DNA of 64,000 nucleotides from contig NC_087245.1 in NCBI RefSeq assembly GCF_037042905.1, forward strand, positions 7,442,001-7,506,000, read 5' to 3'. The notes beneath the pieces are model-generated. The model worked only from the letters and a program-made list of their open reading frames with translations. It was not told the DNA's origin and did not search any database. The DNA comes from Lytechinus pictus (lineage: Eukaryota). Of the stretch, positions 23,609 through 47,700 are shown in pieces; within the stretch, counting starts at the first letter, position 1, and each line of letters starts with the position of its first letter. The translations under genes and the position numbers were made by a program.

Positions 23609-23744
23609 ATGAAGGAAGATGATAAAGGAGGAGGAGGAGAAGGAGGAGGAGCTGTAATGAGCAGTGGAGCAACAGAAGAGATGAGTGATAGCTTAGCAGG
23701 GGAGGTAGTACAGAGCGGAGGAAAGGAAAATGTACCAAATCCAG
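23609..23744 (+). CDS. CCP gene: putative first coding exon ([10 protein letters not shown]...NVPNP); exon may begin at acceptor 23209
   Basis: ATG at 23609, purine-rich open frame, donor cca g|gtagtt (phase 1). Long pyrimidine tract precedes the AG at 23207-23208. Confidence 0.7.
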
Positions 23745-26700
23745 GTAGTTATTCTCAGTTTGTTTTAAAAATGTACAGACTTCGGCTTGCTTGTACACAT
23801 ACAGATTGATTTGTTCAATTTTACAAAGTTCAGACAATGACAACTCAACATGCTTACACATTCTAGAATCACTAAAAATAATACATGATTTCTCATGAGA
23901 TAAATGATATTTCAACATGAGTTGTTTGTTGTTGAAACCAGTGTGTGTAATCTTTTGATATGATCTCATCAGAACCTTTAATAGCATACCACAGTCATTA
24001 TAAAGCTAGTTGGGTATATGCCAGTAATTTTAAATGATATCTTTCTAATCAGAGTTTTTGTTACCAAGGATACTCATATCATGAAATTTATATTCTTCAT
24101 GTGCAAATAGACAGAATCAGCATTGTGAATAGTAAATAATATTGATTATGTATTCTGATATTAGATTTTAAACAATATCTTCTGGTGTTTGTATGTTCAA
24201 ACTGTCAAAATTCAATCTATAAATTATTTTTTATTTAAAGTTAAGGTTAGTTAGTCATGAGTTACTATAGTTACTCATGGCCCATACAAAATGCACTTCC
24301 TTCAATTTTCATACAGACGTAGATAAGGATTTTAGTCAGTTTCCAATCAATGACAATGTTCCCACTGAGCCTCTGACTACATCAATGCAGGGCATTAATA
24401 ATACAATATTTTTTAATTTCTTTGTTTTAAGCAGCTCAAGAAAGGCCCTATTCCAGTAGAAGCACAACATCCTTGAAAGATGAAATACAACAACTATCCA
24501 ATAAGAAGAAAGAGCTGCTGATGAAAGATAAAGGTAATTATTTTATGCTGTCTATATGCAACTTTTTTTCTGGGTACAACCCAAAGGCACTTAATAAACT
24601 CTAGATGGCGCTGTTTGTTTTTGTCTATTTTCATCATTGCATAACAATTCTTGATACTATGATCAATTTGTAAATATTTCAATAATGATATGAAAAATAA
24701 GTAGATATGCAGGGGGGGATTTGTTTACCTTTTCTGTCTTCTAAATATTAAAAGTTCTTTTACTTCATCAGAAAAAAATTTACCCTTTGGTTTTTCTTTC
24801 TATTTATTTTGTGTAACGTACATACAAGATTAAATACAGTTTGTAGTGAAATGTTTACTTTCAAATGGGTATATAATAAGTTACAGAATGCAGCGTGAAT
24901 AAGTCTAGAAATACAAACCGTATATGTAGTGCATTGCCAAAAAAAATACTGTACTAGTGAGTTAATGGACTTCAGGACAGGTTGCGGCTCAAACCCAATG
25001 AAAATATATGATGGGTGGGAATACTTGAGTTAACCTGTTAGCTATGTGAACTATGTGAACATGGAATGTACACATTCCTTCAGGATAGATACATTGTTGG
25101 TGTATGGCTGGTCCTGGAAGGTCTTATCCAACATGGAATCCATTATATCTCTACTGCTAATCCTTTTCCAAATGGAATATAGACACTAAACAATCAAAGA
25201 TCTGATTATTTAGGAATAAAAAACACCTTGTGTCCCTTTTCTTTCCTCCTTCCTAAGTTCCATCTCAATATTGACATGTGGATGATGAATAAAGCACCTT
25301 TTGTTTTCTCTGAAACATTGTATCATTCTTTAGCTCCTGAAGGTAAATATTACTGGTAAACATGTTAATGGTGGCTTGGCTTGCAGTGTACATGTTCATT
25401 ATAGTTGGGAGTTAGGAGTTCTGAGTCAGTTACAGTTAAGATTGGAAGGGTGCTTACATGACATGTCTTTGGTGTCTGTTGGATTTCATGCCTGATTTGC
25501 ATGTATTTTGTTCTGGATTCTTTGTGACTAGGAATTGTTGATATATTTTGTGTATTTGGTTTCTGCCTTGCACCCAGTATATAAGATTGCATTCATCGAT
25601 CTGATATTTTATTAGTCAGGAAAAATCTTGGAACCAGTGGGATTTTAACATTTCATTTACCGATTGCCAGTTAGCGACTCAACCAGGCCATCACTGGTCC
25701 ATGGCACAGAGGCGATGATACAAGAACAAATACCACAGTACCTCTTATTTTGTAATACGACTTACATTCCTAGTCCGCCATGGACAATGGAATGAAATGC
25801 CAGAACGCCAGAAACCGAATGTACGATATCAAAACTTCCCAAGCAAGCCTTAACATTCTGTTCATATAGTTTGTATTTATGGCTGAGTAAGAAAATGTTG
25901 TAAACAGTGTTAAGGCTGATGCCCTTTGGTCTTCTTTGAGGTCTCTAACAAGTAAATCATCTATACGAACCTCAGTCACCTGATTGATCTTCCAACTGAG
26001 CTGTTTGTTGTCAGTTCCTTGGTCCAATAAAGGATGACCTTTTTGTTTGAGGATAAACGTGATTTCTAGTCACAATGAGGATGTGGTCATCAGGCTATTT
26101 TAAGTCTGTGGCAACTGGAGATGGAGAATGTCTATACTAACTTTAGCATGTGTACTTGATGCCATGTAGCATTGTCATCTATACAAGCAGCATTTCTCAA
26201 GACTTTGTAGGGTGCCATGTGAAAGATACTTTGTGTTTTGTTTAACCTTTTTTTTGAAACATTTCCTGCAAGCTTTGTTGAATTAGATTTCTCCATGTCA
26301 AAATGAAATGAAATCTCATCAACTTGTTTGGCAAGCATTGGAACCCACTTTTTAAAAAAGACTTTTATACCTTTTGGGAAGACATGGATACTCAGGCTTT
26401 TACAATGGCATAGTCTAGTTCTTACTTCAATTTGGTACAGAGTGGAAAGAGGAGGCTTATAAGTTCAAATGGCTGCCAGTGGAAGTTGCAGTAACTTCCA
26501 TTCCTGGGATGAGTTTGTCACTGTTATAAGAGACCTTTCCAGTAAGTTTGATAGACAGCATGATCACTAAGCAATGATTTCACTTTGAAGGAGAATGTAT
26601 TTAGGAATCCCTATTTTTGTATTGACTCAGTTGTGCAAAATTGTCCATATTTGAATTTCAAGCCTTTATAAAGCTCTTTAGTTATGAGGGGGGCATTTTA

Positions 26701-29700
26701 TTTTGACGTATGTGGAGTGAAGTGAAAATTTGTTGTTGTTAATTTTACTTATTTCCTTCATATTTGAAATTTTGCCATAATTTTATGGAATCTTAATGAT
26801 TGTATACATATTCAGTGAAGCTAATAAAGGATAATTTCCTTGATGTTGATTTTATGCCATCTGATATTTTTACTGTTGATATACTTGGTTTGTTTGTTAT
26901 TCAGAACCAGACCTATGGAAGCAGAACATCCAGGATCAGATAGAAAAGGAGTTAGAGAGAAGAGTCAGAGATGCTCTAGAGACACCTCCTCTTGAGAGAA
27001 TGAGAAGAAACAAACATAAAGCTCGTCTTAGAAAACAACAACAGAAGAAGAAAGAAGAAGAAAAGAGGTGGGATGTGTTGATTTTGCAGTCTTTTTTGTA
27101 AAATGAAGTGAGCTGAACCAAATGAACCTTTCCGTTGATGATCTGCCATGCTGATATGGCAAACTGTATTCTTTGTTGCAGTTATGACAAAGATAATTGA
27201 TTTAGAGGAAAAAATATACAAAACAGGAAGAAAATCTGGATAATCTTCAAGAAATTTGCATGAAAAGAATATATTGAATTAGAATGACTTTATATGCCCC
27301 CGCAGAAGAAGTCCGGAGGGGGCATTAAGCGTTGCCCCTATCCGTCCTTCCGTCCGTCCCCCACTTGGTTTCCGTGCAATGACTCAAAAAATATTCAATG
27401 AATTAAAAAGAAATTTAGTGTGTAGGTAGATGACACCAAAATACAGGCTAAGTTCGATTTCGGAATCTGCAGGTCAAAGGTCACAGCTCATTAAATATGC
27501 GAGTTGGTTTCCGCATGATAACTTATGAAATATTCAACAGATTTTAAATAAAATTGGGTGTGTAGGTAGATTTGTAGGTAGATGACACCAAAATACAGGC
27601 TAAGGTCGAATTCGGAGTCCACAGGTCAAAGGTCACAGCTCATTAAATATGCGAGTTGGTTTCCGCTTGATAACTTATGAAATATTCAACAGATTAAAAA
27701 AAGGTTGGGGTGTGTAGGTAGATGACACCAAAATACAGGCTAACTTTCGAATTCGGAGTCCGCAGGTCAAAGGTCACAGCTCATTATATATGCGAGTTGG
27801 TTTCTGCATGATAACTTATGAAATATTCAACAGATTTAAAAAATTGGGGTGTATAGGTAGATGACACCAAAATACAGGCCAAGTTCAAATTTGGAGCCTG
27901 CAGGTCAAAGGTCACAGCTCATTAAATATGCGAGTTGGTTCAAAGGTCTAAGTTTGTTCATTATATATATGCATATTGGTTTCTGCACGATATTAAGTTC
28001 AATCATAAATGAATTTCTGATCGCGTTAAGCGGGGGTGTCTGTGTCCTTTGGACACGTCAAATTTCTAGTTTTTATCACAAATCATGTATTTGATTATTT
28101 ATTTTCATTTTTTATTCAACATAGTTCATTATATGTATGCTTGTTTTATGTTTAACTTCATGAAACATAAACGTGATTATCATGGTCATGTGGTCTAGTG
28201 GTTGGAGCATTGGACTTGTGATTGAGAGATCATGAGTTTGAATCGCAGCTCGGCCATTATCTCCACTTTAACAAAAAAAGGCTCGAGAGTAATTTCTGTC
28301 GTCTTTAAGGTCAGCTACTATGACTAATCAAAGTAGACATAAAATGTTTCCTGTGTAATTTATTATTTACCAGCTTGACGTTGATGCGGCAGAGAGCTGC
28401 TCTGCCAAGTTCCTACAGGAGTTACTTCAGCTGAAATGGAACAGATTGAGAAATAGCTTGCATTGCAGATCTGACATCTGCCCAGGAGAATGTTCAACTA
28501 TTTATGCTGAAGAAGTGTGTTGTGGATTTTAATTTCAAATGAAAAATACCTTGCAATTTTAATAGCTGAAGCTCTGAAAGATAGTAATAATATGGAATGA
28601 ATGTGATATGATATTTTTATTGACAACCCTTCCTTTCCTAGATCCCTGACCCTAGAAGAGTGTGATAGCCATGCCCAAGCCTTGCCATCTCTTAAAGAGA
28701 AATTCCCTTGGAATGATATCAACTCCTCCTTTACCTACTTTGATAACCCTGAGAGTCCAACATGGTTTGAACGTCAGATCTACAACACCCAGTACACTGA
28801 TAATGGCAGTGAAAGCAGCGCTGGGTACCTTGATGTCAACGGTAATCAACCTGACTGTAGGACTCAAGAAGAACGGGATGCACTCTCTCGTAAGTCTTCA
28901 AGGCCTAGAACTAGAAGTGCAAGTGTCACATTGACTAGAGACAGGCAAAGAATATTGGCTGACAAAGGCGGGGATACAGATCCTGAAGAGGATAGAACTA
29001 TCATAGACATAAAACGAAAGACCTTCCATCGCTTCACCAGCGCTGGTTTCAGGGAGGCAATGAGAAAGGGCAAAGGGGTATTGAAGAAGATTGGAAATGG
29101 GAAGTACATGGATAAGAATGGAGTGATTCTTTCAATGGATGGTCCTTTCTGGCCTCCGGAGTGTGGACCTCTTTACCCTAAACCCAATCACACCAAGAAG
29201 GTGCCATCATCTGCAGAACCACTCTATGATCATGGTAAGAATTGAGACTTGTTCAAACATGTAGCTCATCAAAGCTCAGCAACATGCAAAATCAACTGGA
29301 TATTACTTGAACATTTCAACAGGCAGGAAGTTTTCTTCATGTAGCTACAAAATGGCTTTGAACAAGCAACATTTTGAAAAGATTTTGTGCAAAATTTATG
29401 ATGATTTTGTGATGCTTTTGACCATAATCTTTTTCACAATAAAATGCCTATGGATATTGTACATTTCCCACCAAATACGATCCATGAACACAAAAACACT
29501 GCTGAGATTTGTTGCCCCTATCTGGACAAAGCTTTCACTAGAAATTGTGCAATTTTGTGTCTTACGTACAATACATGTGTGGGGTGTGGGTCTTTATGTT
29601 TGATTATGTCTTTATCTGTTTGTTCACTTGATGTATCTGTTTTCATGTTTGTTCTTTGTCTAGTCTTGTACACTACATCTAGAAATTAGAGTTTGTCATG

Positions 29701-32700
29701 TTTTTTTTTTTTTTACAAAGTTATCATACAGTATCATCTACCAATGTTTGTTGTCATCTTCTACTCTTAATAGTACAGACCACCTTCTGGTTTGGTTTTT
29801 TTTGTGTATGATTGGGATTTTGCTTGGGACTGGCAGGTGCAATACACTGTGTAACACCCTATTCTGACTAATAGTCTATTGGTTTTGACAAGCATACATC
29901 GTAGGTTGTAACTCTTCTGTACACGGGACCAACAGTTGCATCCTTTCCGATGGATGGAGTGTTTTCAAACTGCATTCACACTTGCTCTGAATCCAGTGGT
30001 GAGGCATGCTAACACAATGCTAGCATCAGTTTTTGTCTCACCTGCATAGCAGAGTGAGACTATAGGCGCCGCTTTTCCGATGGCGGCGACGGCGTCAACA
30101 CCAAATCTTAACCGAAGGTTAAGTTTTTGAAATGTCATCATAACTTAGAAAATATATGGAACTAGTTTATGAAACTTGGACATGAGGTTAATCAAGTATC
30201 ACTGAACATCCTGCATGAGTTACATGTCACATGACCAAGGTCAAAGATCATTAGGGTCAATGAACTTTGGCCGAATTGGGAGTATCTGTTGAATTACCAT
30301 TATAACTTTGAAAGTTTATGATTCTGATTCATGAAACTTGGACATAATAGTAATCAAGTATCACTAAACACCCTGTACAAGTTTCAGGTCACATGATTAA
30401 GGTCAAAGGTCATTTAGGGTCAATGAACTTTGGCCAAATTGGGGGTATTTGTTGAATTACCATCATAACTTTGAAAGTATATTGGTCTAGTTCATAAAAC
30501 TTGGATATTTAAGAGTAATCAAGTATCACTGAACATCCTGTGCACATTTCAGGTCACATGACCAAGGTCAAAGGTCAATGAAGTCCATTTCTGTTTTATC
30601 AATCACCCTTTTTTTGTGTGTTTCATATTTAATCGTACATCCTCGTAATTCCATTAACATAATTTCAAAAAATACCTGGTCACTTACAATAAATTTGCAA
30701 GATTTCTTATTGATATCCTCAAACCTAGCCTCATTGTGTTCATTCTTGTCAATATAATTCATTGTTATTTCTTATTTCTTTTATTTTATCTCTTATAATT
30801 TTTACATATTCCTCATCATTTAGAAGTAAACTGCTAAATTTCCAAAATCTGTTACGACATCGACCATTATCTAATTTGAGTTCTAAACTAATCAATTAAT
30901 GATCAGATCTATAGCTATTATGGATCTGACAACTTGAAACCAAAGAAAGTAACTGATTAGATATCAAGAAAAAATCCAAACGACCTTGTTTTAAAGGATT
31001 AGGTTGTCTCCAAGTGTACCGTTTTAAATCTGGATTAATAGATCGCCATGGATCAATTAAGTTAAAATCATTTTTAATTTCTGTAACTTTGTAATGTGCG
31101 TTTTTATTATTTAATCGAACGTAGTTATATGAATCCAAATCAAGATCCTGGAGTAAATTCCAGTCTCCGCACATAATTACAATAGGATCGTTTATGTGTA
31201 ATATAATATTCTCTAATTCTTCGAAAAAGCTGGGACAATCCTTGTTTGGGGCATAAAGTGAAATCAAAGAAAATTCTAATTGTCCAATACAAAGGCTTAA
31301 AGCAGCATAATTAAATTAAGTCATATAATACCTGTTTCACTTCGCATTGATTTCTTTTATCAAGTAATATCACGACACCCCTAGCATTAGAGGATTTGTT
31401 TGCAAAAAAACATGAACCATCTCAATCAAGTTCAACTATAGCCTCTATCTCAGGCACGAAAAGCGTATCTAATAAACAACCTTGGTAGACCAGCAGCACC
31501 ATGATTGATGCTGCTGAGTAGGGCCATCCTCCCGTTTTCTATTTATCAATTCACATGTATCATTTTATATGTATTGTTATCTGTTTTTTAACGGAAAAAA
31601 ATTCAATTCAACAAATATCAGCATTTTTACTTTTAAGATAGTTCAATACATCTTTTCTTTTCTGCAAGTTTCCCAGACCCCTGCAATTTACTGAGATAAT
31701 TTTCAACTTACTATTCATAGATCGAAACATAGCATAACCCATATAAAAGCCATCGAAGGGATTTTTTTTTAACATACAAGACAAAACAAGACTTATAACA
31801 TAAAAGACGACACCAAAACAACACCTGAACAAGACAAGAGACTCGCACTGCGTTTCCTTACATAAATACCACACATAACAAAGGAGAGTAGGACTTTTCC
31901 ATGGGGTCTCCTACGAAATCCATTTCTTACATAAGAACGTAAAATCTGTAAAGAGCTTGAACCTTGCCCTTATTTTATGAAAGAGCATTCTTTCCTGTCA
32001 TTTTTTCCTAAAAAACAAAAGAAAGAAGATATCTAGTTTGTAACCAGGAATTTACAACCATTTAACATAACAAAGGTAAACGCAATGTAGGAATAAATTA
32101 AGATGAACACAGATCATTGAAATGAGAATAGGCAAACAGCGATTCCGGTGCCGTATGTGTTCATAATTATCCTAATGAAAAGGGGGAAAAGTCGAAGCTT
32201 CGAAACCCTAAAATAATTTTTTAGAGTAGATGCAATTGTAAATAATGAAAAAAAAGTAAGGAAAATGATAATAATATATATATTTGCAATTTACAGCACC
32301 TTTGGCCAAATGAATTCTCAATTTTCATGTCTGTGTTCAACCAAATTATCTAAAATGACTTTATAAACATAAATCGAAGTTTCTTCAATTTACTTCCTGA
32401 TCATTCTTACATCAGCTTTTAAACATTTCCGAGAAAATCAGGCTGAAGAAAATGGCTAATAGTGATGTTACTTTCATCGATTGAGTTACAGATCTCCTTG
32501 TATTAGTTTTTCAAAGAAACATAACCGAGGTCAAAATACATCTTGAAAATATTTAATGTAAATTGCATGATAAACGTGCCTATTTCTTATGTTCTTGCTT
32601 GATACACACAATAATATTGATCTCTTCTCATTTGACAGTCATATGAATGCTCTTTTCGTATTAATGTTCCGGAAAATGTTTACACTGTTTATCAAGTAAA

Positions 32701-35700
32701 TATACAAGGAAAAAAAAATCTTTTGAAAAATAGAAAATATTTTGACTCTCTGTAAAAACTATAATTGATCCACTCAATTGCCCGTCCAATTATCATGATT
32801 ATGCGGACACTGACTAGCTCAAGAACTTTAAACTATGCTTAATGACTGCAATAATTGTATAGAGTGAATGAATGGAATCGTGTATTTTATTTCCATTTTG
32901 TTCTGAATATAATTCAAAAAATATTCTTTATGTTTAACTAGGACATTTTTAATGTCACAACTTATTTTTTTCTCTCGTATTAATATAATTATATCATCAA
33001 TCTATTTCCAAATTGTCAAACTTGAAAATAACTACTCTCTTTATACAAGCTATGAAGTCATTATTTATTCCACTTTTTCTAGTTTCACAAGCCTATGTCT
33101 ACTTCACTGTCGACATATTGGATGTTTTTAATCTTTGAGTATTATTCATTGTACAATCTTTCAATTAAAGTTTCAAGTCTTAAGAATTGTATCACCACAT
33201 GCCATGCGTATATATGTGGCAAATAATCCGTGGTCTGTGCTGTTTGAGTGAATGATACAATAAATACATCAATGTACTGAAATAAAAGTCTTTCTTCTTC
33301 TTTTTACATGAGATTGTATGCATACATAGATGAAAACTGGTTGTTCTACCTTTCAACTTAATGTATTTATTTTAAAAAATCATAGCATATAACCAATATA
33401 CATTTTTTATAGCAAATACTATTCATCTTAGTCTCTACCTTCTTTTGGTATTTTGTTATTTAGTGAATTTATATATCTGCTATTTCAAACATAAAGTGGA
33501 AACTTATTTATCATAGTTGTTTCCCATCTGTGATAGCAATTTAATACTTAATTGTTTTATTTATTTTTCTTTACTTTATAGGGGAGACCGGGGTTAGTTG
33601 GAACGTTTTTGACAAAAATGGCTGTAAAATCCAAATAGATTTTATTCGAGAAACAATCAATATATCAGCTTGAAGCATATATCTCAGGGCTTCAAATGTA
33701 CCCAATAAAATTTTTAACTCTATTATGGTTACTGAAAAAATCCACCTTGAACAAGACCATCGCAAACGTTCCAACTTACCCCCATATCGGGGTAAGTTGG
33801 AACATGGTATGGGGTAAGTTGGAACACTGCATGGTCAATTAAGAATTATACTAAAACTACTTAGAACTGTAATATTACATGGTTTTAGCCTATTTGCTTT
33901 ATCTTATTCAAGTTTAAAATATTAAAGTGTGGATTCGTTGAACTTTATGTTTTCTATTATACAGCCACTCACGCAAGCAGACTGTGTAGTAGAATTCTGC
34001 ATATTTGGGTGCGTTTGAGTTTACATGCAATTAAGTGTACTGTCAGCAATTTCATGTACTTCTGCATCAAATTTTTAAGACAAAAATTGATTGTTTATAT
34101 TTTTTTTATAATTAATTATGCAAATAAGCATGTAAAATTTTCCCGATTTTTTTTGGTATGTTTTTGCCTTTAACTATTTATTAAGCTAGTAGAATGCTAA
34201 TTTTTGGTGAGAGTATCAATTTTCACATTTATAACAAATATCCACCAAAAAATATAATTTCTTATGTATTTTTTGTTTTTTATTTGTATTTTTGTTTTTT
34301 CGAACTTTGTTTTTTCTGATGGACTTTGTCAGGAGTCTTTTGCGATCATAAATAGCATATTAATGAATCTAATTGAACCAGCAAAAGTAAAAAAATAATC
34401 ATACATTTATGACTTTTGGTTGAAAAACACAATTTGCATTGACCTTGTACATGGAATCACGTTTTTGATCAATTTTGGGTCCGAACATGCACATACAATT
34501 TGTTGCGTAATTTTGAAACCGCGCACACAGGCATCGCAAATTTGGTCTCAAATGATGCGCAAGACTTGAAAGTAAAAAGTCAGCTAGCAGTGTAGTCAAA
34601 AAATTTCGTGCAACGGCGTAGTGACAAAATTTCTTGAGGGGGGCTCAAATTGACCCCCCCCCCCATTTTGATAAGGGTTAACATTGCATTAGGTGCCTAC
34701 AATAGGCCTTAAATGCACACTCAGACCTAACTGATAAACAAAACAAGCATGGTATACAATACATGTTCAGAAGAGTGTGAAATACTTTGTTTTTTTTCTC
34801 ATATCCAATGTTTTCATTCATAATTGTGTTTGGGGTAAGTTGGAACATGTTCCAACTAGCCCCTTCAATTTTGTTCCAACTAACCCCGGAGGCCCATTTG
34901 ACGTTCATAAGCTTACAGCACAAAAAAGGGACTTTACCATGGCATAATAATAACCTCATTTTGTAGCTTGGTATAAGTGTCTATTATACCCCCAAACTGG
35001 CCAACTTGATCTATAAACTTCTCTGAGATAATCAAACATTTCTGAACGAGAAAAAATTTACTCAGAAGGTCAAAAAACAAAAATTTGTTTCTAACTTCAC
35101 CAGGCTTGTTGCACATGTGTTGTCTGTAATATGGTGGATGGCTGTTGATAATGACAATAAATTGAGGGCAGTATTGCAGAAATTTATTTAAAGACGTTAA
35201 AGAAAATTACAATGTTTCAACTTACCCCATGTTCCAACTAACCCCGGTCTCCCCTACTGTTTTGAATTAATTCTGTATTTTCATTTAGAAACTATCCTGG
35301 ATTCGGAAAATCATAGTATCGTTATTCCATATATTTAGTATTTTCAGAATATCAGAACAATCCAATGGAATTTTATCCATACTCACTGTGAAAAAAAATA
35401 TATTTTACAGTGAAATTACATATTCATGATACAATATTTTCTTTCAAAGGTGCTCACATTTTTACAATATTTTGTTGTGTGTTTTACATTGAATCAATGA
35501 ACATGATAAATATGTGATTGTACAGAGGCTTGCTCACCAACTTCTTTTCAAGCGTTTACAAGTGCTGTCCAAGGTGATGTTGATCCGTTTTTATCGACAC
35601 TCTAGGGTTAGCTTGATTCCATTTAGACGGATCCTTGTTGATTTATTTTCATTTTTCCTCAATTGATAGACGTGATTTTCCAACTCAAACCGTCGCTTTT

Positions 35701-38700
35701 TCAATTGTAATGGAAGATCTGTGACAACTCGAAGCCGTACTGGACTATCAGAAGTTGGTTGAGCATGGTGATTTTTCTTGAGCTGATATTTTTTCAATAC
35801 TGCATCGTGATCGAACATACTCATAAATCAAAACGATGATTGGATCCGGACCTCTGCGTTGCTCCCCCTGAATCTGGCTTCTTGGAAGCCTGTGGGCGTT
35901 TACAAACTTCATTTTACTTGTTTCCTCCTGGGTAAAGCCTAACTTCTGTATACTGCTTCTTACTTTCCTTTCAATATTTTCATCTTTCTCCTTTTCGATT
36001 CCGTACAGCAGAAGGTTGAGTTTGGGATTGTGTAGCTCCAGAGCAAGGATTGAATCCTTAATTTGTGCTTCCATAGCATTTTTCTCCTGTCTTAGCTTCG
36101 GAATTTCCTGATTTTCAATTGTGCTTATTCTTGAAGCCGAATCTGCTGCTGCAGCTTGTAGATCAGCAAGTGTTGTATGCATTCCCGAAATATCCTTCTT
36201 GATAGCAGTCATCTGAGAGCCCAATGTATCCAAACGTTGTACATGTAGAATCTGGTTAGACAGTTTTTGAAAATCTGCACATGTTACCATGTCTGATGTC
36301 TTCCCAGCTTCTAATGCATGGTCCTCTTCCGTGGTGACTTGATTATTAGACATGTTTTTTTAAATTAAACTTGGCTTAGGAGAATACCTGTCCTTTTTTT
36401 TCCAAGGAGAGTCTGTAGAAGAATTACTGAAAAAAATCAGTTATATACTTTGAGATTTTGCTCATGCTGCCCCTTTGGAAGCATTCTGCCATACAGTTGT
36501 AGAAAATGCACTCCTTCAGGCTGAGTGTTGAATGGAGACAACAACACTACAATGTTCGGCAAGCCCAGAGAAATAAACTTTAATTAATATAATATTTTAC
36601 CCCCTCACTTCACAATTAAATATCTAAAACATGGCAGAACTTGAACACATGAAATATGTTCATTTTCTGGTGGGGTTCACTAACTTTTTAGCACCACTGT
36701 ACATGTACAGTGGAGGAGCTGTTGCGTAGTGGTTCTGACTCTCCCCTTGTAAACAGAGGGTTGTGTGTTCAAATCCCACCATGGTCTGGCGTCCTTTGGC
36801 AAGGCGTTAATCCACACTTTGCAACTCTCGACCCAGGTGATAAATGGGTACCCGGTAGGATGTGAAAGTCATTGTAGCTTGTTCAGTACTGTGTGCGCCT
36901 CACCGGCTACTGACTGGAATATTCCCCAGGGAGTGGAGGATGTGCACACATTGTGTGCGGGAATGACTGATTGAATCCGATGACCGGGGTAATAATAGAG
37001 ACTTTTAGGAGCAGTGAACGAGAACGGCGTAGCAGTCGTCTGATCGTTCGAGTCAACGTCGTCTGCACTTGTTGACTACAGATGCGAATACTTTAGATTT
37101 CACTCAACTTGTACATGTATGTACGTCCACGTGAAACAGCGCGATAACCAGCAGGTCATGACACGCTGCCCGACCCGGAAGATCTGTCGTACCATCGCCG
37201 GGCTTTGATTCCTTTTTACGCGAATCAGGATATATATTGATATATATTTTGGAGATCAGAAAGCAATTTCATATATGATAAACATAATGCATCATACAAC
37301 TTTATTTTGTGAAAAAGTCACTGAAAACTGTGTTTTAAAAGGGAAAGGTTGATCTTCATGCTGAGCTTGAGCGGTTGAAATGACATCACTCACGTGCACG
37401 TCGACTATGATTTAGGAGAACAGCAAAATGGATGTGGCGAGGTTCTCGATTCTGATAGTGGAGGTGTGTGAGTACCTGAGGCATATGGAACGCAAAAAAA
37501 TGACGTAATCTCGTACCAGTTGTCTATGTCGACGTGCGTTTCTAAAAGTGCTCAATATATCTGTAAAGCGCTTAGACACGTCGTTGTGATGTTTTAAGGG
37601 CTATATAAAAGATTATTATTACATGTATGTACTTTCTGAGTGAGACCAAGAACTATAGTCAATCATGTATAACCACAATAGACTTCCAAGTGTGATTTTG
37701 ACACATCATTGATTTTTGACAGCACGATTACATTTGTGGTTGATTGATAAAAAGGATAATCATCTTGAAACTAGCTGATTCAATATCAACATACATGTAG
37801 GAATTGAATTTGCAAGGCTGTCAACTATCTATGAGAACAGTATTCATCATTTAGCCCAAGCAAGATGAAATGAAAAGAATGAGTGATTTTTCAAAAGACA
37901 AACATTTATGGCATTTGACCAATAGAGGGCAGCTTCATACATCCAAGTTTTGTTAGATTGAAAGCCAACCACCAGAATTGATGTGTGAATTTTCAAAACA
38001 CCAGCAGTAGCAGCTGCAGCAATAGGTGGTTTCAAACCGCCTCGATCACAAGAATCCCCGTTAAATTACGAGAACTTTTTTAGGCTGAAAAATACCCATT
38101 AATTATTCCTGCATTCACACCGCCCTGAAACATACCCTTCGGGATAAGTTCCTGAAGTTACGAGCATGCGCAGTATGGTCTGATAAGCAGCAAGGCGCGA
38201 AATTCAAAATCACTAGCCCAGCAGCAACCCATGCACGGCGCCGCACCCAACGACACGCTGGGCTAAAAGTTCCCGTAATTTGCTTTCAGACCGCCAAAAT
38301 ACCCACGACCTTGGAAAAATCCCCGCGAAAGTTCTCGTAATTTCGCCAAGTACCTACTATTTATCGGGTATTTTCTTTCGGGGATATTACGCGTAGTTTG
38401 CTTTCACACCGCCAAAATACCTGGTATTTTCTGATCGGGGTAAATTTCCCGATCAGAGAATACCTGGAACTGGCGAACTTCGAGGCGGTCTGAAACCACC
38501 TAATGAGCATCTTTCCCCAAAAAATAATGAGTTGGGCATACTAGGCCTAAATAATTTGTCTTAGTGTGAAAGAAAGAATGTTTCTGCAATCTGTAGTCTT
38601 TGAATGTTTCAAACAAAAATATTGCTCATGAGTAGCTGAACTTGACTCTGTTTTAAAATTATGTTTAAAAACAAATAATTCATGCAAAAAATTTTGAATG

Positions 38701-41700
38701 TTCTGTATTTGAGAACAATTCTTTAAATGTTTGAAAGGCAAAATGGCAAACTTAATGTTTACTAGAAAATGTCCTTGTCAAGCCTGCTTCTTAAAACTCT
38801 CAATATTCAATAAAAGGAGAAACGTATACTGTAGCATCCTGACTTTCTTCTGTAGTTTTTATGTCAGGTCTTTTTATTTTGACACCTTCGTGTTAATGGA
38901 GATATTACAGCTTGAAGTAGCAGTCTCCTTGTTGTTTATGGCTATTAGTACAATATGCTTATGCTGTATAGTTGACCAGTGCAAAGCTTCTGGACAAATA
39001 AGCTTTGGAGTAGTGTTTGCAAGATTTATGTTTTCAATGTACTGTATGCCTATGTAATGCCTGCACATTTTTTCCATATGAAAAATAATGAACCAAAGGT
39101 TTACTTGCTCATTTTTATTCATTCTTCCAATATGTACACCCATGCACTCCATGGATTTTTTTAATAAGATGTTATTTTAAGCATTGTTTTACTGATAAAG
39201 TTTAATGTACCCAAACCTCCAATCATGCATGGATTTAATACTGAGGCTTAAAAAAAAACTGATTAAATACCCAACTGAGATCAATAAATGCTGTTGATAG
39301 CTTTTATAAGGAAATGGAATAGCAGACATTTGCAGTAAGAATATCATACATAGCCTGTTCATTGGTGCTGATCGGGGGGGGGGGGGGGGGTGAGGGAGTG
39401 GGCTTTTGCCGTTTGAAATTAGCCCCTCTTTTGCTGGTCAAAATTGTCCAGGGGAACACTTTCGATGAGTAATGTTTATACCTTTTTTTTGTCGATAATA
39501 ATTGTTGTTTTTAAAGTGCATCTCCTGGTGAATCCTGGATCTGCCCCTTTATGTTGATACATCCTGCAAACTTCTTGCAATTTTTGTGTTGTAAAAAAAC
39601 ATCTCATACAAATATGCTGGAAATGTAAATTATGTGAGTAAATGGATATTTCACTGTGTTACTGTTATTTGTTCTGTGATTGAATTGTAATGTGAATTTA
39701 ATGTCAGAGAATGTTCAATTGCTTAGGGATCTTTTGAGTTTCCTAATGACCAGAAGCCTTCCATATTATACCATGAGATGAGCAGAGATAACAAGCATTG
39801 AAATGGTGCCATATCACATTAACAAAAAGTGTAAGAATCCATCTGAGGCAAACATGCCATTTTTAAGGTTTCCCTCCCCCCCCCCCTTTGAAAGAGGTTT
39901 AACACAACACATTTTTCTCAGAGCCTTTTCACTGAAAGCTTCAGTGAGATTCTGTTGTTCTCTTTAGTAATAGGAGGAAGTGGTTTTTTTTTTCATAAAT
40001 GGAATGATGAAAAATTATGTTAAAGAAAGGTTATGTATCTTTGGAAATTTATATTTAGTGATAATCTTTCATTTATAACTTATTATTCAATGATTGGTTT
40101 AGTTATTCATAGATTGGTTCATTTGGGGTTTTTTAATCAACTTCAATAGAAGGATTTTTCAGACACTTGGAAAAGTTTGAATTGACATATGATCAAGGAG
40201 AGCACATGAAAAGAGTACACGACCATGTGTATTTTCTAGGCCTAAATCAAATATAGGCTTATGTTATCACATTTTTTAAACCACATAAATCTTGATGCAC
40301 ATATACCATACACGTAGTTGACATGAATTTGATTATAGTCTTGTAGCTAAATTACCCCCAATACACTGTAAATATCTTTATTTTTTAGAGACAGATAATA
40401 CAATAGATACTGTAACCTGTCTAATAATGTTTGATACTTTGACTGGTTCCTTGACTGTCACTCTGTTTTCTATCCTGAGAGAAAACTACCATACATACTC
40501 TTGACAGTACCTAGATGAAACCCTATATTACATGTACCTCATATAAAAGAATAGCCCTATTCACAAGAAGTGCCTGGTTGTCTCAAAGCCCAGTTGAGGT
40601 AGGTCCGCTATTGTCAAGGTGTGCTCACTCAGTAGATAGGACTTCGTTCATTGATGTTCCTCTTACCATGAAGCAGATCACAGATGATTTGGAGAGGGGT
40701 TTGCTGGTATTAATCACCCATAAAGGGCAGGACTGGATTAAGAAGTTCATTTTGATGATGGCTGCTGGGTAATGCCATTATTTAGATTCTATAGATTGTT
40801 GTGTGGACAAGGAATTATCCTGGACAAATCCCCTTGATATGGAGTCATGTAGGACTCGCTGAGCTCATCTTTTGATGCCTGGATCTGTTCTTTGAAAACA
40901 ACACTTTCCTCTCTTTAATAGTGAACACATTTTGCAGGTTTATTTTGTGGCTCTGAGAATATTAACCTACTCATAAAAGTTATTAACCTGTGAAGCCTGG
41001 ATGAGGACTGACAAGTACATATTTATTGTGTTAGAAATTGGTTTGTTTATGTAGATTTGCATCTGTGGTATTAAAGGTAAATGCTAGTTTTGGAAACGAT
41101 ATCAAAATGAGTTCGTACAGAATCCAATGAAATGACCACCAAAGTGTCTGTTTGTATAAATAAAACGCATGTGCCAAAGGATTCTGGAAGAAATTGTGTA
41201 ATTGCTGAGAAATCAGCAAATAAGCACAGGATTCGGGTAGAGCGTCGGGCCCGACGCTCAAAGCAATAATTATACACTGTCCCACGTGCGCTTATCTGTG
41301 TTGGGGAAGTTCAGTCTGAACATTTTTCAGCGTAGATTTCAAGATTTCACAAAGTTCAGTTTATGTAACTGTACCAGATCTAGATCCTCGATGATATACT
41401 GACAATTAAGCCTGGTTTTACAGACTTTCTAATGAAATCAGAGTTTACTGCAACTACCGGAATTTCTCTTTAAACTGAGAAAGGGTATATTGTTTTTTAA
41501 GTGAATTCTACTGGGAATATTACCAAAATGTTAAGTGTGCTGTAGTCCAGAAGCTTTAATATACATGTATGATACTATTAAATTCCTTTATAAGCTGTTG
41601 TTTCATGATGTAAAATGCTGATATAATTTTAGAAAGCACATTAATACTTCTGTTAGAGAAAGGGATTAGGCCTAAAATTTATGTTTTATCAAACATGCAC

Positions 41701-44700
41701 AAAATAACTTCAAATTTTAAAAATCACATTCAAAGGACAATTTTATTGTTCAATTTTTTTCTCAAAAAACTGCAAATTTTCCTGTTTGTTTTTTCTTGAA
41801 TTTTACATTTGAATGGATGAAATGTCTAACATTATTTAGTCCTCAATATCAAGGACTTTTAATACATGGTACAAGATCACTTGAAATTTCCTTTGAAAAT
41901 TAAATGGTGGTACATATGTAGTGGATTTACATCATGGCATAGTTTGGGTTGGAATCTCTTTAAAAGAAATCAAAATATATTCTTCTTTCATTTAAGATTT
42001 GATATCATAGTACCACCTGCATGTACACGTGTACTGTAATAGATGAGAAAGAAACACACTGGGACATTTTGGCATCTAAATTTATATTTGGAATATGACC
42101 TACATACATACATGTACATAATACATGTATATTCCAGGAAATGTTTTTGACATGTGACACTGCAGGCGTAAGATTTGTCTCATCATTGCCTCAATTTTGT
42201 TTGTCAAATTCACCTTTATGCAAGTGTGTAAAACCATAAACAATGAGATAAATACCTGGAGGGAAACTCTGTATAGAGTAGAATACAGTGAGTCTATTTG
42301 AAAGAACTTCCATTGATTGTCAATTTTGCCTTTCATCACAAGATAAAATCAATCGCTTCTCTTCTCATCATTCTTTGGAGCTATAGATCAATATCTCTTT
42401 TTTTAGGGAAGAATTTGTTCATTCAAACCACAATCAAGGTTCTTTCAATAGCCCAAAGCTTTCTCTAAATTATGAGTTCACCGTATTCACCCATTTAGAT
42501 TGATAAAGTCTTTTTAACTGTTTTCAAATTAATACGTAAATAAGATGACTTTCATTTGATTAGTTAAAATTAAGCTGAGAAATATAGAATATATATACAC
42601 AAAGATGACATATTTCACATAATTTTTAATTAAAATAACAATGAAAAGCTAATGGGCCTAGATGAATAGGATTTGGGACAGTAAAGGGTTAATTCAATGA
42701 GAACTACATGTACATGTACGCTGTGCATTAAACAGAGCAATTGATAGGAAGATCACATTGCTTTCAAAATGCAAAAATGAATAAATGAGGGTGAAATAAA
42801 GGATGAGATTTCAGTATCTTGGGAAGTGGACCTTCTCTTTATAGTTAATTTTCTTGATAGTTATATAGTCACTAAGATCATGGCAACTTTGTTTGATTCT
42901 GATTGGTTGAGGGTTTTGATACGCTTTTCAAATTTTATTCAGACTTATGTCAAAGAAATAAGAAATTTTTTCAAAAGATTGACCATTGCAATATCTTGTG
43001 GTTTGATGAGGATAGTATGCTCAGTTGCTCACACATGTTAGCCTTTTTTTTTTTAAACATGTCACCAAAAGCAAGTTAGTTATTTCAAAAACATGCAAGT
43101 TGTATTCTTAATTAATTATAGTTGTTAGGTGAATAAAAGTGAACTGAAATTTGCAACTATTGAAGTGAATTGTAGGGATTTTTATATATTTAATGTCATT
43201 ACACAAAATATTGTCAAATATACCCTTTCCTCTGCCAAAATTTACTTCCAAAAGTTGTGCATTATGCTTCAAAGGGAATTTTGTTTTCTTGTGACAATCT
43301 GTTCCCAACTTCCCATATTGATTTTTCCTGCACCTCCTGGGAATAGCCTCAAAATATCAATGAATGAATGGCAGCTAGAACCCATATCTATTGACCCAAT
43401 GCTGACTTGCTACTCACCTATTGGTCATTAGGTTTCGACATATTTGACCAAATAGCAACCTTAGTAGTACATCAGGCTTCTCAGTTTAGACCTATTTAGT
43501 GGGTACTTGATAATCTTGTAGGCAAATAACATTTACAAGACTGCCAATATGCTGTATTAAGAGAATGCACAAACAGAGATGAGATGAAAAGAAAGAGAAC
43601 AAATATGTTGTACAAGTAGTTCTATTTCATCTCTGGAGGTTTTTGTGCACGTTCCTGTAATTACACTCGGTACAAATGTGAAATATTTGCTATGAATATC
43701 AGTAGGTATTTCCACTGCAGAATTAAGTTAAGGACTGATGATCTCAGCTGCAATATAAAGTTGAAAAAACACACAGAAAGCCATAGAAATGTAGAATCAT
43801 GTCAGTGAGTTATTGTGGAAGTGAAATTGAGTTAGGAAATGATGCACTTTTCGACACCCTTGTTCATTTACATGGAAAGAAAAGCACTGGGTTTATTTAT
43901 TCTAATAAACTTTCTGTTTTTATTTTTTTTAAACCCCTAACATGTTGGAATGTCATTTCCAAATTGAAACTCTCGGAAACTTAAAGTCTATGTATTTCAT
44001 ACGCATCATTTGTATTATAAAGATCAATGATTTTGCTAAATCTTTTTTAAAGTACAGTAAATACTACTGTTTCATCCAAAATGCCATTCACATTGGTTAT
44101 TAGTTAATAGTTCATGTATTCATATTTCATGAACACAAGTGATCATTAAACATAGAAGCTATCTGTTACAAATCTGATATGTGCTTCTTTATTTGAACTA
44201 GAGCAAACAGGTGTACTCAAAGTTCAACTGTAACAAATCTATATCTTCCAGACAATCTAATTCTTTCTTTTTTTCATTCTGTCTCAAGTTTGGAATTGGA
44301 AATCTGATCAATGTGTTCTGCAGAGCAGACATTGAACCATCGATCTCAGTAGGATCTGATAACAGATAATTTTACATTCATGACCACTTGGGAGCCTGCC
44401 TTTTGTATCAAGGAATTTATAGTCAGCCACAAGGAACTGCCATGTAACACCATGTCATTGTGGAAGCACAGTTAATCAATAATGACATTGGTTTTTATTG
44501 TTGATTCCTGTTGGATGGATGTGTCTTGGCCTGTAATGAAGAACATCTATGTATGTTGTACGACCGGGTCAGATGTGCATCAGCGATTGGTTTGGAAACT
44601 ACTCAAGTGCTTGACTTGATACTGATATTTTCGTCATAGTTTGTTCACTTCTCTCAAATAATTCAGTTCTAAAAAGGGTCTGTATTCACATTCTCACCTT

Positions 44701-47700
44701 CAATAGAATACAATTGCTCCAGCAGGTACGAGACCTTTGCTTCCATCCATTGATGAATATGCATTTACGGTAGAAGAGGTGTCCTGTGTTCTCCCAAGGT
44801 ACACTCTACTGGGGTAAGATAACCCACACCAAGTCAAATCAAGGACAATCAGCATATTGTGGAATTCAGGAAATTGTCAGTTATAAAGATAGAGAAGTAC
44901 ACGCACATGTAGCTGTCATTTGCGTAAAATTTCATGATGGAATTAAGCCAAGAACTTAACACCTCTCTACAATATCCTGTTCATGAAGTTTTGAATGACA
45001 ATGTTGCTAACAAACATTAGTCAAGAGACCAATACCAACATCATGTTTAGAACTCAGAATCCTTTGAGCATTGTCCTACAGTCATGACAATGAAATCATC
45101 TTCAGAGTCTCCTTACACCCGCAATGGCACTGTCTCACCATCTCGATTCCCATACTACCGCTTCCTCCCTCCACTTAAATCTCCACCCCCTCTGTCAGCT
45201 CCACCCTCCAAGCCCCCATTCCGTGAGGATTACTATGGTGAGCATACTTACACAGCTTATGATACCCATAGGTTCTGGGTCCATGGCCCTCACTGGCCTA
45301 TCTATTTCCTAGGTGAGCTTCTACCCACTCCTGAACACATCTTCACTGTTCCAAAGGAACCTGAGCCTCTATGGCAGTATGGTAAGTATCCAATCAACGC
45401 AACATGACAATTGCTGTATCAACTATCAGTTTTGTCCTACATCATTGGTCTATTTTTTTTAATTTGATTCGTATTGTTCTTGTTCTGTTTTGTTTTGTCT
45501 ATTACTGTTTTTTTAAATAAATTTTTGTCCTGGTCAGTTTTTCCCCATTTTGTGTTTGTTTTGTTTTGTTTTGTCCTGTCCTGTTATGTACTGTCCTATT
45601 TTGATCTCTTTTGTGTTGTTCTGTTCTGCTTTGTTTTTGTTTTTTGTTTTTTTGTTTTTTGCTTTGTTTTCTTTGGTTTTGTTTGTCCTTGGTTTGATTT
45701 TATTAGGTATTGGTACATGCATGCAACTTTATCCACTAATTCAGTATTCTTCACTGTGATCAATTTTGCTTTGTTTTTATTTTGAATATCAGTACAAGTA
45801 CTTATAATTCATTTCATTGAATAATTGTAATATATGAGGTTGACATGGTGATTATGAAAATTTCAGTATCACTGTAAGATTTAATGCACTTTCAATGTAT
45901 AATTATTGTGTAATTTCATTTGAATTTTCTTTAAAAATCTATTTTGGATTTATTCATTAAATAGGAAATATTGAAGAAGTGTGCTAATATCCTTTTCTTT
46001 CAATTTTATGGATTTTATATTGTCCTTTTTGTTTTCTCCAGTTCCTCAGGATGGAAGGACTATTCATACCCAGAAGACTAAATGGTATAGGCCATGGGAA
46101 GGCACTCAGAATGTCTTTGACTCTGAAAGGACATCCAAAGGGACCATTCCACACACCATACCAGAGGGGTGCTGTCCAAGCTTAGTTTTTGAATCACGGT
46201 TTGAAAGTGGCAATCTCAGACAAGCCAGAAGAATGTAAGTTAGGAATACACCTTTTTTATTCTTCTCCTTTGCCAGGATTTTCCTATGATTTTTGGTGGA
46301 CAAAAAATTATATAAAAACTACATGTAATAGCATCAGCATTATTTTTTTTCTCTCTTTTTTTACCCATCTTTCTTGTTGCCATTAATCGTATTATTTTAT
46401 TTTATGCTAAATTTCCGATTGGTACAGTGTATCACATCTTCATGTACTGGTACAACCTCATTTTGGCGTTTGTTTTTTTCTTGTTGCAGTGGTCAGTTTG
46501 AGTATGACCTTGTTCTGAAGACTGACCTTTACACTAGCCGTCACACTCAGTGGTATTACTTCCGGGTTCAAAAGATGCGTCCAGGGGTCACTTACAAGTT
46601 CAACATCATCAATCTACTCAAGAAAGACAGCCTTTATAATCATGGTCAGTTTGAAAACACTATTGTCTAAACCTTTTTTGGAGGGGGGTGGGGTAATTTA
46701 CAGTTTATTACTGTACTAATCATGAGATTTGTTTATTACTTGCAGAAAATTAAGTGGTATTTCTTTCAGGTGCTTCGAATTGTCTCTTTTTTTTCCCTCA
46801 TGAGCAGCACTTTTTTCCAAGAAAATTTCTCCCTTTCATATGATTTCTTACAAAGTAGCGTGTACCCAGATCTAGCTTTTCTTTCTCTTTATTAAATAAG
46901 GCATGATTCCCTATAAACTGATGTTTTTTACAATATTTTTATTTCTAATTTCTCTATTCCAAAATTTTCCATTTATGTATATGGTAATTGCTAAACTTGA
47001 AAGTTAACTCAAACAATTACTATTACTCATGAATGCTGAATAAGATTTCTTTATAATGTTGAGTGTTTGCATGTATATAGATGTATAGATTGTAGTGTCC
47101 CTAAAGTTCCAGTTCCAATTTTTTTTTACTTTGCCAAAGCTTAAAAAAAAAAATCATTAAATCATTTGGAACCCTCCTAGCCCGATATCCTTTCTTTTGA
47201 CACCACCATACAGGTATGAGACCATTGATATATTCAGAGAAGGAAGCAGAGGCTAGTGGTCAAGGCTGGGTCAGGGCTGGTCATCATATCTCTTATTCTA
47301 GGAGTTACGGCTTCAACAAAAATGGACTTCTGCACCCTGAAATTACATATTACGTTCTGGAATGGCAAATGGTAAGGAAGTGTATATTGTTGTATTTGTG
47401 TTGTCTTGTTCTTCAGATGATATTAGATAGAGATGAAGGGTTTACTTTAATGTAGATCATGGAACTTGTTGTAAAGTGCAATCCATGTAAGTGAGGGGTC
47501 CAGACCTAAAAGAATTAATCCTGTATTATATTTATTTTTTTCCAGTTTAGTATTTTAATTATATTTGTTTTCTTGATGATTATTATTGGCTTTTGAAAGC
47601 AGATGTCCACTATTGATTAGATTTTTAAATCCACTCTTTTTATGCAATCATTTCATTTCCTTTTTTGCAGGGGGGGGGGGCATTTTTTCACGAAACAGTC

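Follow-up and report, generated by a model that had tools for sequence, protein, structure and literature searches.

The plus strand of a 64,000-nucleotide stretch of the Lytechinus pictus genome (NC_087245.1, positions 7,442,001 to 7,506,000; hereafter the window) carries a CCP2/3-type cytosolic carboxypeptidase (CCP) gene, in which, quite probably, two mutually exclusive front ends with paralogous copies of one motif serve a single catalytic core. The long arm (331 residues) ends in exon A, which is 593 bases long and preceded by other long-arm exons, and the short arm (99 residues) is encoded by exon B; A and B are distinct 5′ exons that are joined to a common downstream exon, C.

The transcript evidence comes from contig sets guessed to be RNA and from raw RNA runs chosen by species label; about 6% of each of the raw runs X19–X21 was read, and X22 represents a closely related organism. 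The joint between exons A and C, 29233>46041 (GT..AG, cut +1), is carried by 6, 4, and 2 reads in X19–X21 and by a contig of set X1, and the joint between exons B and C, 45380>46041, by contigs of two studies, X1 (depth 17.2) and X15 (depth 3.5), as well as by 5 reads of X22. In addition, loose ends before 46041 that spell the end of exon A are present in 5 reads of X22 and in one contig of X5. Given that both joints are seen in L. pictus and in its relative, both forms exist in two species. An earlier note on this DNA, made from the letters alone, had stated that either exon splices in frame to 46042 and had proposed A and B as interchangeable modules of a long and a short isoform, and the reads and contigs bear out both points. 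The exon ends, translations, and phase-1 donors that it gave were recovered as well; an RNA joint (46234>46490) places the end of exon C at 46234 and not at 46236. In X1, the contig depths of exons A (22.1) and B (17.2) roughly sum to that of C–D (45.7). The A:B ratio differs between runs: exon B reaches a depth of 0–1.1 versus 7–10 for exon A in three raw runs, and the junction reads of B and A number 5 versus 5 in the relative.

Contigs of two studies pass unbroken from 44581 and 44484 to 45380, reads of the relative cover 44287–45380, and an in-frame TAG lies at 45048, upstream of the exon B ATG. Because transcripts run through 45082, the position at which the earlier note had let the exon begin, exon B belongs to a 5′ exon whose leader spans at least 600 bases, and is not a cassette. 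Exons A and B are alike neither in length nor in their upstream flanks, and only the downstream exon is common to them, so that they do not form a classic pair of mutually exclusive internal exons. Among the joints listed and the proteins gathered, A and B never occur together. The parts of the gene are as follows.

23636..23749, + strand: first coding exon of the long form, start MKEDDKGG... (tblastn of the L. pictus protein P0038 on the window; limits approximate)
24431..24532, + strand: second coding exon of the long form (tblastn; limits approximate)
26469..26543, + strand: alternative exon with which the coding sequence of P0041, a third variant of the N-terminus, begins (MAASGSCS...; tblastn)
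26901..27068, + strand: long-form exon with a conserved stretch of 15 residues (tblastn; alignable with the long arm of Lymnaea, E 2e-17)
28642..29234, + strand: exon A, the last long-arm exon, in frame from 28643 (phase-1 donor at 29234, cat g|gtaag)
29141..29233, + strand: A-type motif copy of 31 residues (the G of GPFWP begins at 29141)
29235..46041, + strand: intron of 16,807 bases removed in the long form, holding exon B and its leader (joint 29233>46041, GT..AG, cut +1)
44289..45083, + strand: 5′ leader of short-form transcripts (L. pictus contigs from 44484 and 44581; related-species reads from an acceptor-like AG at 44287–88)
45084..45381, + strand: coding part of exon B, start ATG at 45084 or 45090 (phase-1 donor at 45381, tat g|gtaag)
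45285..45380, + strand: B-type motif copy of 32 residues (translation, profile, tree, docking)
46042..46234, + strand: common exon C, acceptor for A and B and start of the Pfam N-domain, with a ten-residue stretch at the domain start that is encoded at 46.2 kb (RNA joints, Pfam)

In the short protein P0001, the CCP N-domain (PF18027) covers residues 149–219 (E 1.1e-8, 35.6 bits versus a cut-off of 23.2) and the zinc carboxypeptidase domain (PF00246) residues 307–445 (E 1.8e-13). The metal-binding HPGETNASW and the FTLEATFCG with the catalytic Glu are both present in its sequence. The source names of its relatives are cytosolic carboxypeptidase 2-like, CCP3, and AGBL3 (no vertebrates among the 120 matches listed), consistent with the CCP2/3 type. 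Given that the N-domain begins at residue 149 of the short protein and that Pfam returns no family for the three exon peptides (A, B, and C), the motif lies outside any curated domain.

Likeness and predicted docking of the two exon tails

The earlier note counted 14 identical residues in 32 columns between the tails of exons A and B, a hand alignment that computation reproduced. BLASTP of exon A against exon B gives 16 of 48 identical positions (E 1e-5 in a single comparison), and when the exon B peptide was shuffled 5000 times, the local score of 67 was never attained (mean 31.9, sd 5.1, maximum 56). Upstream of the motif, the exons differ in composition as the earlier note had described, exon A being charged and basic (K+R 0.16, D+E 0.15, P 0.04) and exon B rich in Pro and Tyr (P 0.18, Y 0.11). 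The alignment reaches further upstream of the motif, through aromatic and Leu columns, and the distance from motif to junction is the same in both. The reading frames of A+C, B+C, and A+B+C are all open. Since the same phase is forced on any exon that joins 46042 in frame, it is only the equal distance between motif and junction that speaks for homology here.

A possible site for the motif is offered by a complex test in which residues 40–99 of P0001, which hold the B-type copy, were set against residues 100–560; in the calibration of this test, 51 of 78 solved complexes passed the mark, as did 2 of 108 mismatched pairs. The pair scored 0.82, the best of three controls 0.02, and contacts agreed between runs to at least 49%, with a partner predicted local distance difference test (pLDDT) score of at least 45. 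The confident partner contacts fall at residues 77–83, 85–90, and 93–98 and take in 10 of the 14 residues that A and B have in common; the G, P, W, and P at 68–72 lie outside the confident interface. On the side of the core, contacts are predicted at 150–154 (the FESRFE strand), 189, 215–241, 278–289 (around HCYPFTF), and 523–539 of the catalytic domain. The modeling supports, rather than shows, a role for the shared half of the motif as a strap that links N-domain and catalytic domain.

Such a site also lends itself to an explanation by convergence, in which any front end that docks in the same groove evolves the same few Pro, His, and Glu-Pro-Leu contacts, and the concentration of identities in the predicted interface, like the forced splice phase, fits it. 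However, the 14 identities keep their order and spacing over 32 columns with one gap, four of them (the G, P, W, and P) fall outside the interface, and the alignment continues upstream through the aromatic and Leu columns with the motif-to-junction distance unchanged. Convergence is thus improbable, and comparison of the sequences supports the view that the two tails are old paralogues.

The locus, its gene models and the short-form leader

In the NCBI annotation, the L. pictus locus is divided into LOC129256691 (23636–29242) and LOC129256700 (45084 onward). Taken at face value, these would be two separate genes, the former reading through the exon A donor to a stop after …EPLYDHGKN and the latter starting independently from exon B. 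Several models agree with this: the L. pictus proteins with exon A are short models, named 'myosin-M heavy chain-like' or LOC129256691, that run through the donor and end in GKN (P0038, P0039, P0041, and P0047), MTMK opens each of the 7 L. pictus proteins found with exon B and every core model of the species, and low-depth X1 contigs pass the donor (29223–29472, at a depth of 4.5 versus 22.1 for exon A). Against it stand the 12 junction reads in three runs and the contig that link 29234 to 46042, the same join in the related species, and the 27 proteins found with exon A among relatives, all of them echinoderm CCPs, every one of which (27/27) has the A-type motif directly before the common exon and the catalytic core behind it. 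Moreover, no second catalytic core was found between 29.2 and 45 kb, and the exon C peptide has a single match in the whole 812-Mb genome. These findings, together with the reads that join A to C, mark the division as an annotation error; two genes are highly improbable, a minor arm-only read-through product is possible, and the L. pictus annotation should merge LOC129256691 and LOC129256700. In L. variegatus, NCBI has one gene, LOC121427202, whose isoforms X1–X12 are A-type and X13 B-type.

Within its own genome, the B tail has no further copy beyond exon B, the two remaining rows being at chance level (E 0.76 and 4.8), and Rfam gives no match over the 16.8-kb intron. The simplest reading of the short-form transcripts is that exon B likely has a promoter of its own inside this intron. 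Its leader, 44289–45083, contains 20 upstream ATGs, several with open frames of 27–45 codons, which may exert translational control over the short form. In the relative, 45085 is changed from T to A, so that the first ATG of exon B reads AAG (8/8 reads) and the short form would start at the second ATG, 45090, in agreement with the L. variegatus model, whose first residue is the second Met. Between the two species, exon B has four synonymous third-position changes and no residue change (0/97), and exon A differs in 3 of 197 residues.

Other features of the locus were noted. The C-terminal exons at 52–63 kb vary, L. pictus isoforms P0001–P0007, P0035, and P0036 differing by several optional C-terminal inserts. 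Within the intron, 36696–37600 has an RNA depth of 450–730, versus 7–10 for exon A, in the sense orientation of the gene, and a non-canonical joint, 36993>37554 (AA..TC), is found in 254–415 reads per run. Most of the reads in this interval are only 95–99% alike, many continue into unlike sequence, and no Rfam family is matched; the signal probably comes from a dispersed repeat that is expressed elsewhere. At 30136–30577, there is a tandem repeat of 162 bases in 2.7 copies, with an RNA depth of ~170–200 and joints that go back.

Age of the two front ends

The search with the core protein gave 5223 matches, of which 120 are listed, and 139 proteins were gathered in all. Profiles assign 102 of these to the A-type and 34 to the B-type and leave three unclassifiable (two firefly proteins and amphioxus P0078, all below 7 bits). 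Two snail proteins, P0083 and P0095, which a pattern match had placed in the B-type, were rejected as such and are A-type with an F>Y change. The A-type pattern, …NG[VI]….DGPFWP.E.GPL.P.P.[HF]…EPL, stands behind a long arm and occurs, among the matches listed, in all five echinoderm classes, hemichordates, amphioxus, a nemertean, and molluscs. The B-type pattern, …[RK][FY]W..GP[HY]WP.[YH]……TP.[HF]….P…EPL, stands within ~110 residues of the start and occurs, again among the matches listed, in bivalves, gastropods, the brachiopod Lingula, and Lytechinus. In L. variegatus, Mizuhopecten, and Crassostrea virginica, the A- and B-type isoforms converge 49, 48, and 48 residues, respectively, before the ten-residue stretch at the N-domain start, and downstream of that junction they are identical in 150 of 150 positions in each species.

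Urchin B is identical to sea-slug B in 18 of 34 positions (E 2e-10), compared with 16 of 48 for its own A (E 1e-5). It scores 35.1 bits with the protostome B profile and 23.3 with the non-echinoderm A profile, and urchin A scores 83.5 bits with the non-echinoderm A profile and 8.8 with the B profile. Searched against 1.84 billion representatives, exon B found two short B-type proteins only (E 1.6e-5 and 2e-5), with no A-type protein passing; the ESM Atlas, searched with exon B, gave no usable match. A maximum-likelihood tree was computed from 33 segments (13 B and 20 A) of the 139 proteins, with about one row per species and type, omitting both firefly proteins, P0078, the L. variegatus proteins P0042 (equal to P0001 in the segment) and P0008 (A-type), the snails P0083, P0095, P0097, and P0098, P0122, and all further isoforms. 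In this tree, A and B part with 100/99 support, protostomes and deuterostomes separate within A, and urchin B falls next to P0135 inside B. Forcing urchin B together with 10 echinoderm A rows lowers the log-likelihood (lnL) by 27.5 and is rejected in the approximately unbiased (AU) test (p-AU 0.0008).

Given that the A/B pair occurs at the same junction in molluscs and a brachiopod, the duplication is likely older than the protostome–deuterostome split; the old exon duplication put forward in the earlier note thus appears to reach back further than was guessed there. The long arm is also old, aligning end to end with that of the pond snail Lymnaea (E 2e-17, including RRVR[DE]ALETPPLER). That exon B is instead a young, Lytechinus-specific copy of the exon A tail, its likeness to the mollusc short forms being due to chance, would suit the finding that, among the named deuterostomes on the match list, the B-type occurs only in two Lytechinus species; but exon B resembles mollusc B more than it does its own A, support for the A|B split stands at 100/99, and an origin confined to echinoderms is rejected by the AU test, so that this account has hardly any chance of being correct. 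The tandem isoform A>B>C with two motif copies, also proposed in the earlier note, is scarcely credible as a real and meaningful product: exon B, 300 bases long as that note drew it, would keep A+B+C in frame and is preceded by AG at 45082, but transcripts traverse this position, no joint or loose end at 45082 (and hence no 29234>45082, the one absent junction of the three that the earlier note had named) was found in four runs (contig sets and the X22 reads), X19–X21 add no tandem support among the joints listed, where rare events are possible, and none of the 139 proteins has two copies of GP[FHY]WP, so that orthologs do not routinely carry both copies in one protein either.

The unclassified proteins deserve mention on their own. 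Amphioxus P0078 ('AGBL3', 642 residues) has a third kind of front end, which ends in …KFWPHV just before the common exon and lacks the remainder of the motif; this may reflect a B-type exon truncated by the gene model or a true third form. The firefly proteins P0048 and P0074 of Lamprigera come from adjacent CCP2/3-like genes (neighbouring locus tags); both contain one copy of a WP.EC…H….P..PEP motif, which is claimed by neither profile (<7 bits).

A proposed switch and its known counterparts

Taken together, one gene with two mutually exclusive front ends and one core could work as follows. Two mRNA classes would be made, with either A or B joined to 46042, the short one likely being transcribed from its own promoter in the 16.8-kb intron. 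Each arm would end in its own paralogous copy of the pre-N-domain motif, whose predicted docking site is where the N-domain meets the catalytic domain. Because the splice junction would thus fall just behind a needed structural element, an alternative front end presumably must supply its own motif copy. The two arms, one long, basic, and helical and the other short and rich in Pro and Tyr, may then give the same core a different activity or placement. A wider form of this proposal is tentative and rather doubtful: the pair would be a bilaterian-wide two-promoter switch of CCP2/3, more than 500 million years old, in which every isoform brings its own strap to clamp N-domain and catalytic domain together, the arms set activity or ciliary placement, and vertebrate CCP2 and CCP3 may be the pair resolved into two genes.

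A number of points weigh against this picture. In the AlphaFold2 monomer model of the B-type protein P0001, confidence is below 50 for residues 1–81, 59–72 for 81–100, and 79–84 for 101–130; in that of an A-type protein, P0034 of a sea cucumber, the long arm is helical and …KFMD..NGVILT..DGPFW forms short strands at 61–75, with residues 241–266 below 50, so that the motif is not placed confidently. The complex test cuts one chain at residue 99/100, which is the exon junction, and nearness is partly given by this; its calibration covers no peptides or disordered chains, and it concerns the B-type copy. With regard to the promoter of exon B, the contigs from which it is deduced end at 44484 and 44581, and in the relative 10 reads splice into the AG at 44287–88 from an upstream exon that was not placed in the window: its last 30 letters have no match there at up to 3 mismatches and are unlike the end of exon A. 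The 20 ATGs in the leader would damp translation of the short form. As for age, the margin of urchin B between the two profiles is only ~12 bits, the large search with exon B returned few hits, the tree has 60 columns only, the branches of urchin B (1.06) and P0135 (1.14) are long and join each other, and the group used in the AU test was chosen after the tree was known. Among deuterostomes, the B-type is found, in the matches listed, only in two Lytechinus species and the fragment cluster P0135, and the models listed for Strongylocentrotus, Diadema, sea stars, sea cucumbers, a brittle star, crinoids, hemichordates, and amphioxus contain none; in these animals, it may be unannotated or lost.

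To our knowledge, CCP2 and CCP3 are the least understood of the tubulin deglutamylases. A front-end pair that is kept in urchins and molluscs points to a needed structural element outside the Pfam domain, and also to a natural long/short regulatory switch that is accessible in sea-urchin embryos, a classic cilia system. What is new is the paralogy of the two ends, the junction shared across phyla and the likely bilaterian age that this implies, the site at which the motif is predicted to dock, and the corrected gene model for L. pictus; the isoform pair is already known, as computed models, in L. variegatus and molluscs.

These models are the closest counterparts. The RefSeq isoform sets of L. 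variegatus (LOC121427202) and the CCP2-like sets of Mizuhopecten yessoensis and Crassostrea virginica have the same two front ends, one core, and the same junction, and are given without comment; the L. pictus locus is instead split in two genes. Literature searches found no paper on the paralogy or age of the two exon ends, nor on alternative front ends of CCP2/3. The pair resembles tandem duplicated exon substitution, in which, according to the excerpts of Martinez-Gomez et al. 2022 (PMC9741552), homologous alternative segments never co-occur and are old; such homologous substitutions of bilaterian age are rare, 21 events being counted in human, and AGBL was not found in the main text of that paper. 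Unlike the cases described in those excerpts, only the 3′ part of the exons is homologous here, and A is internal, whereas B has its own ATG and forms part of a 5′ exon, so that the choice is likely made by promoter and not by splicing.

The mouse enzymes CCP2 and CCP3 belong to the same subfamily and, as far as the excerpts of Tort et al. 2014 (PMC4230590) go, share the N-domain motifs FESGNL and YP.T. with the urchin protein, whose FTLEATFC is identical to a stretch in the mCCP3 E540Q primer; no alternative front ends are described in these excerpts. Full-length mouse CCP2 and CCP3 are weak in cells and end-trimmed forms are active, and nothing is said to be known of the role of the non-catalytic ends (PMC4230590, excerpts). 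The shortest active constructs, Z1703 and Z1670, keep ~120 residues before the N-domain; additional trimming at both termini confirmed that they are the shortest, the N-terminal cuts being 123 and 115 codons shorter by name, and the inactivity of the shorter constructs is as read from the legend of Figure S2 (Tort et al. 2014, PMC4230590, excerpts). Among solved structures, none with the pre-N-domain motif was found. Those of human CCP5 (8v3m and relatives) have the same M14 carboxypeptidase core and CCP N-domain, and their chain starts at the F.S.F.SGNL strand, residue 5 aligning with residue 144 of P0001, and lacks the motif. The minimal mouse CCP2 and CCP3 constructs, by comparison, presumably contain the motif, which we take to be removed by the further N-terminal cuts.

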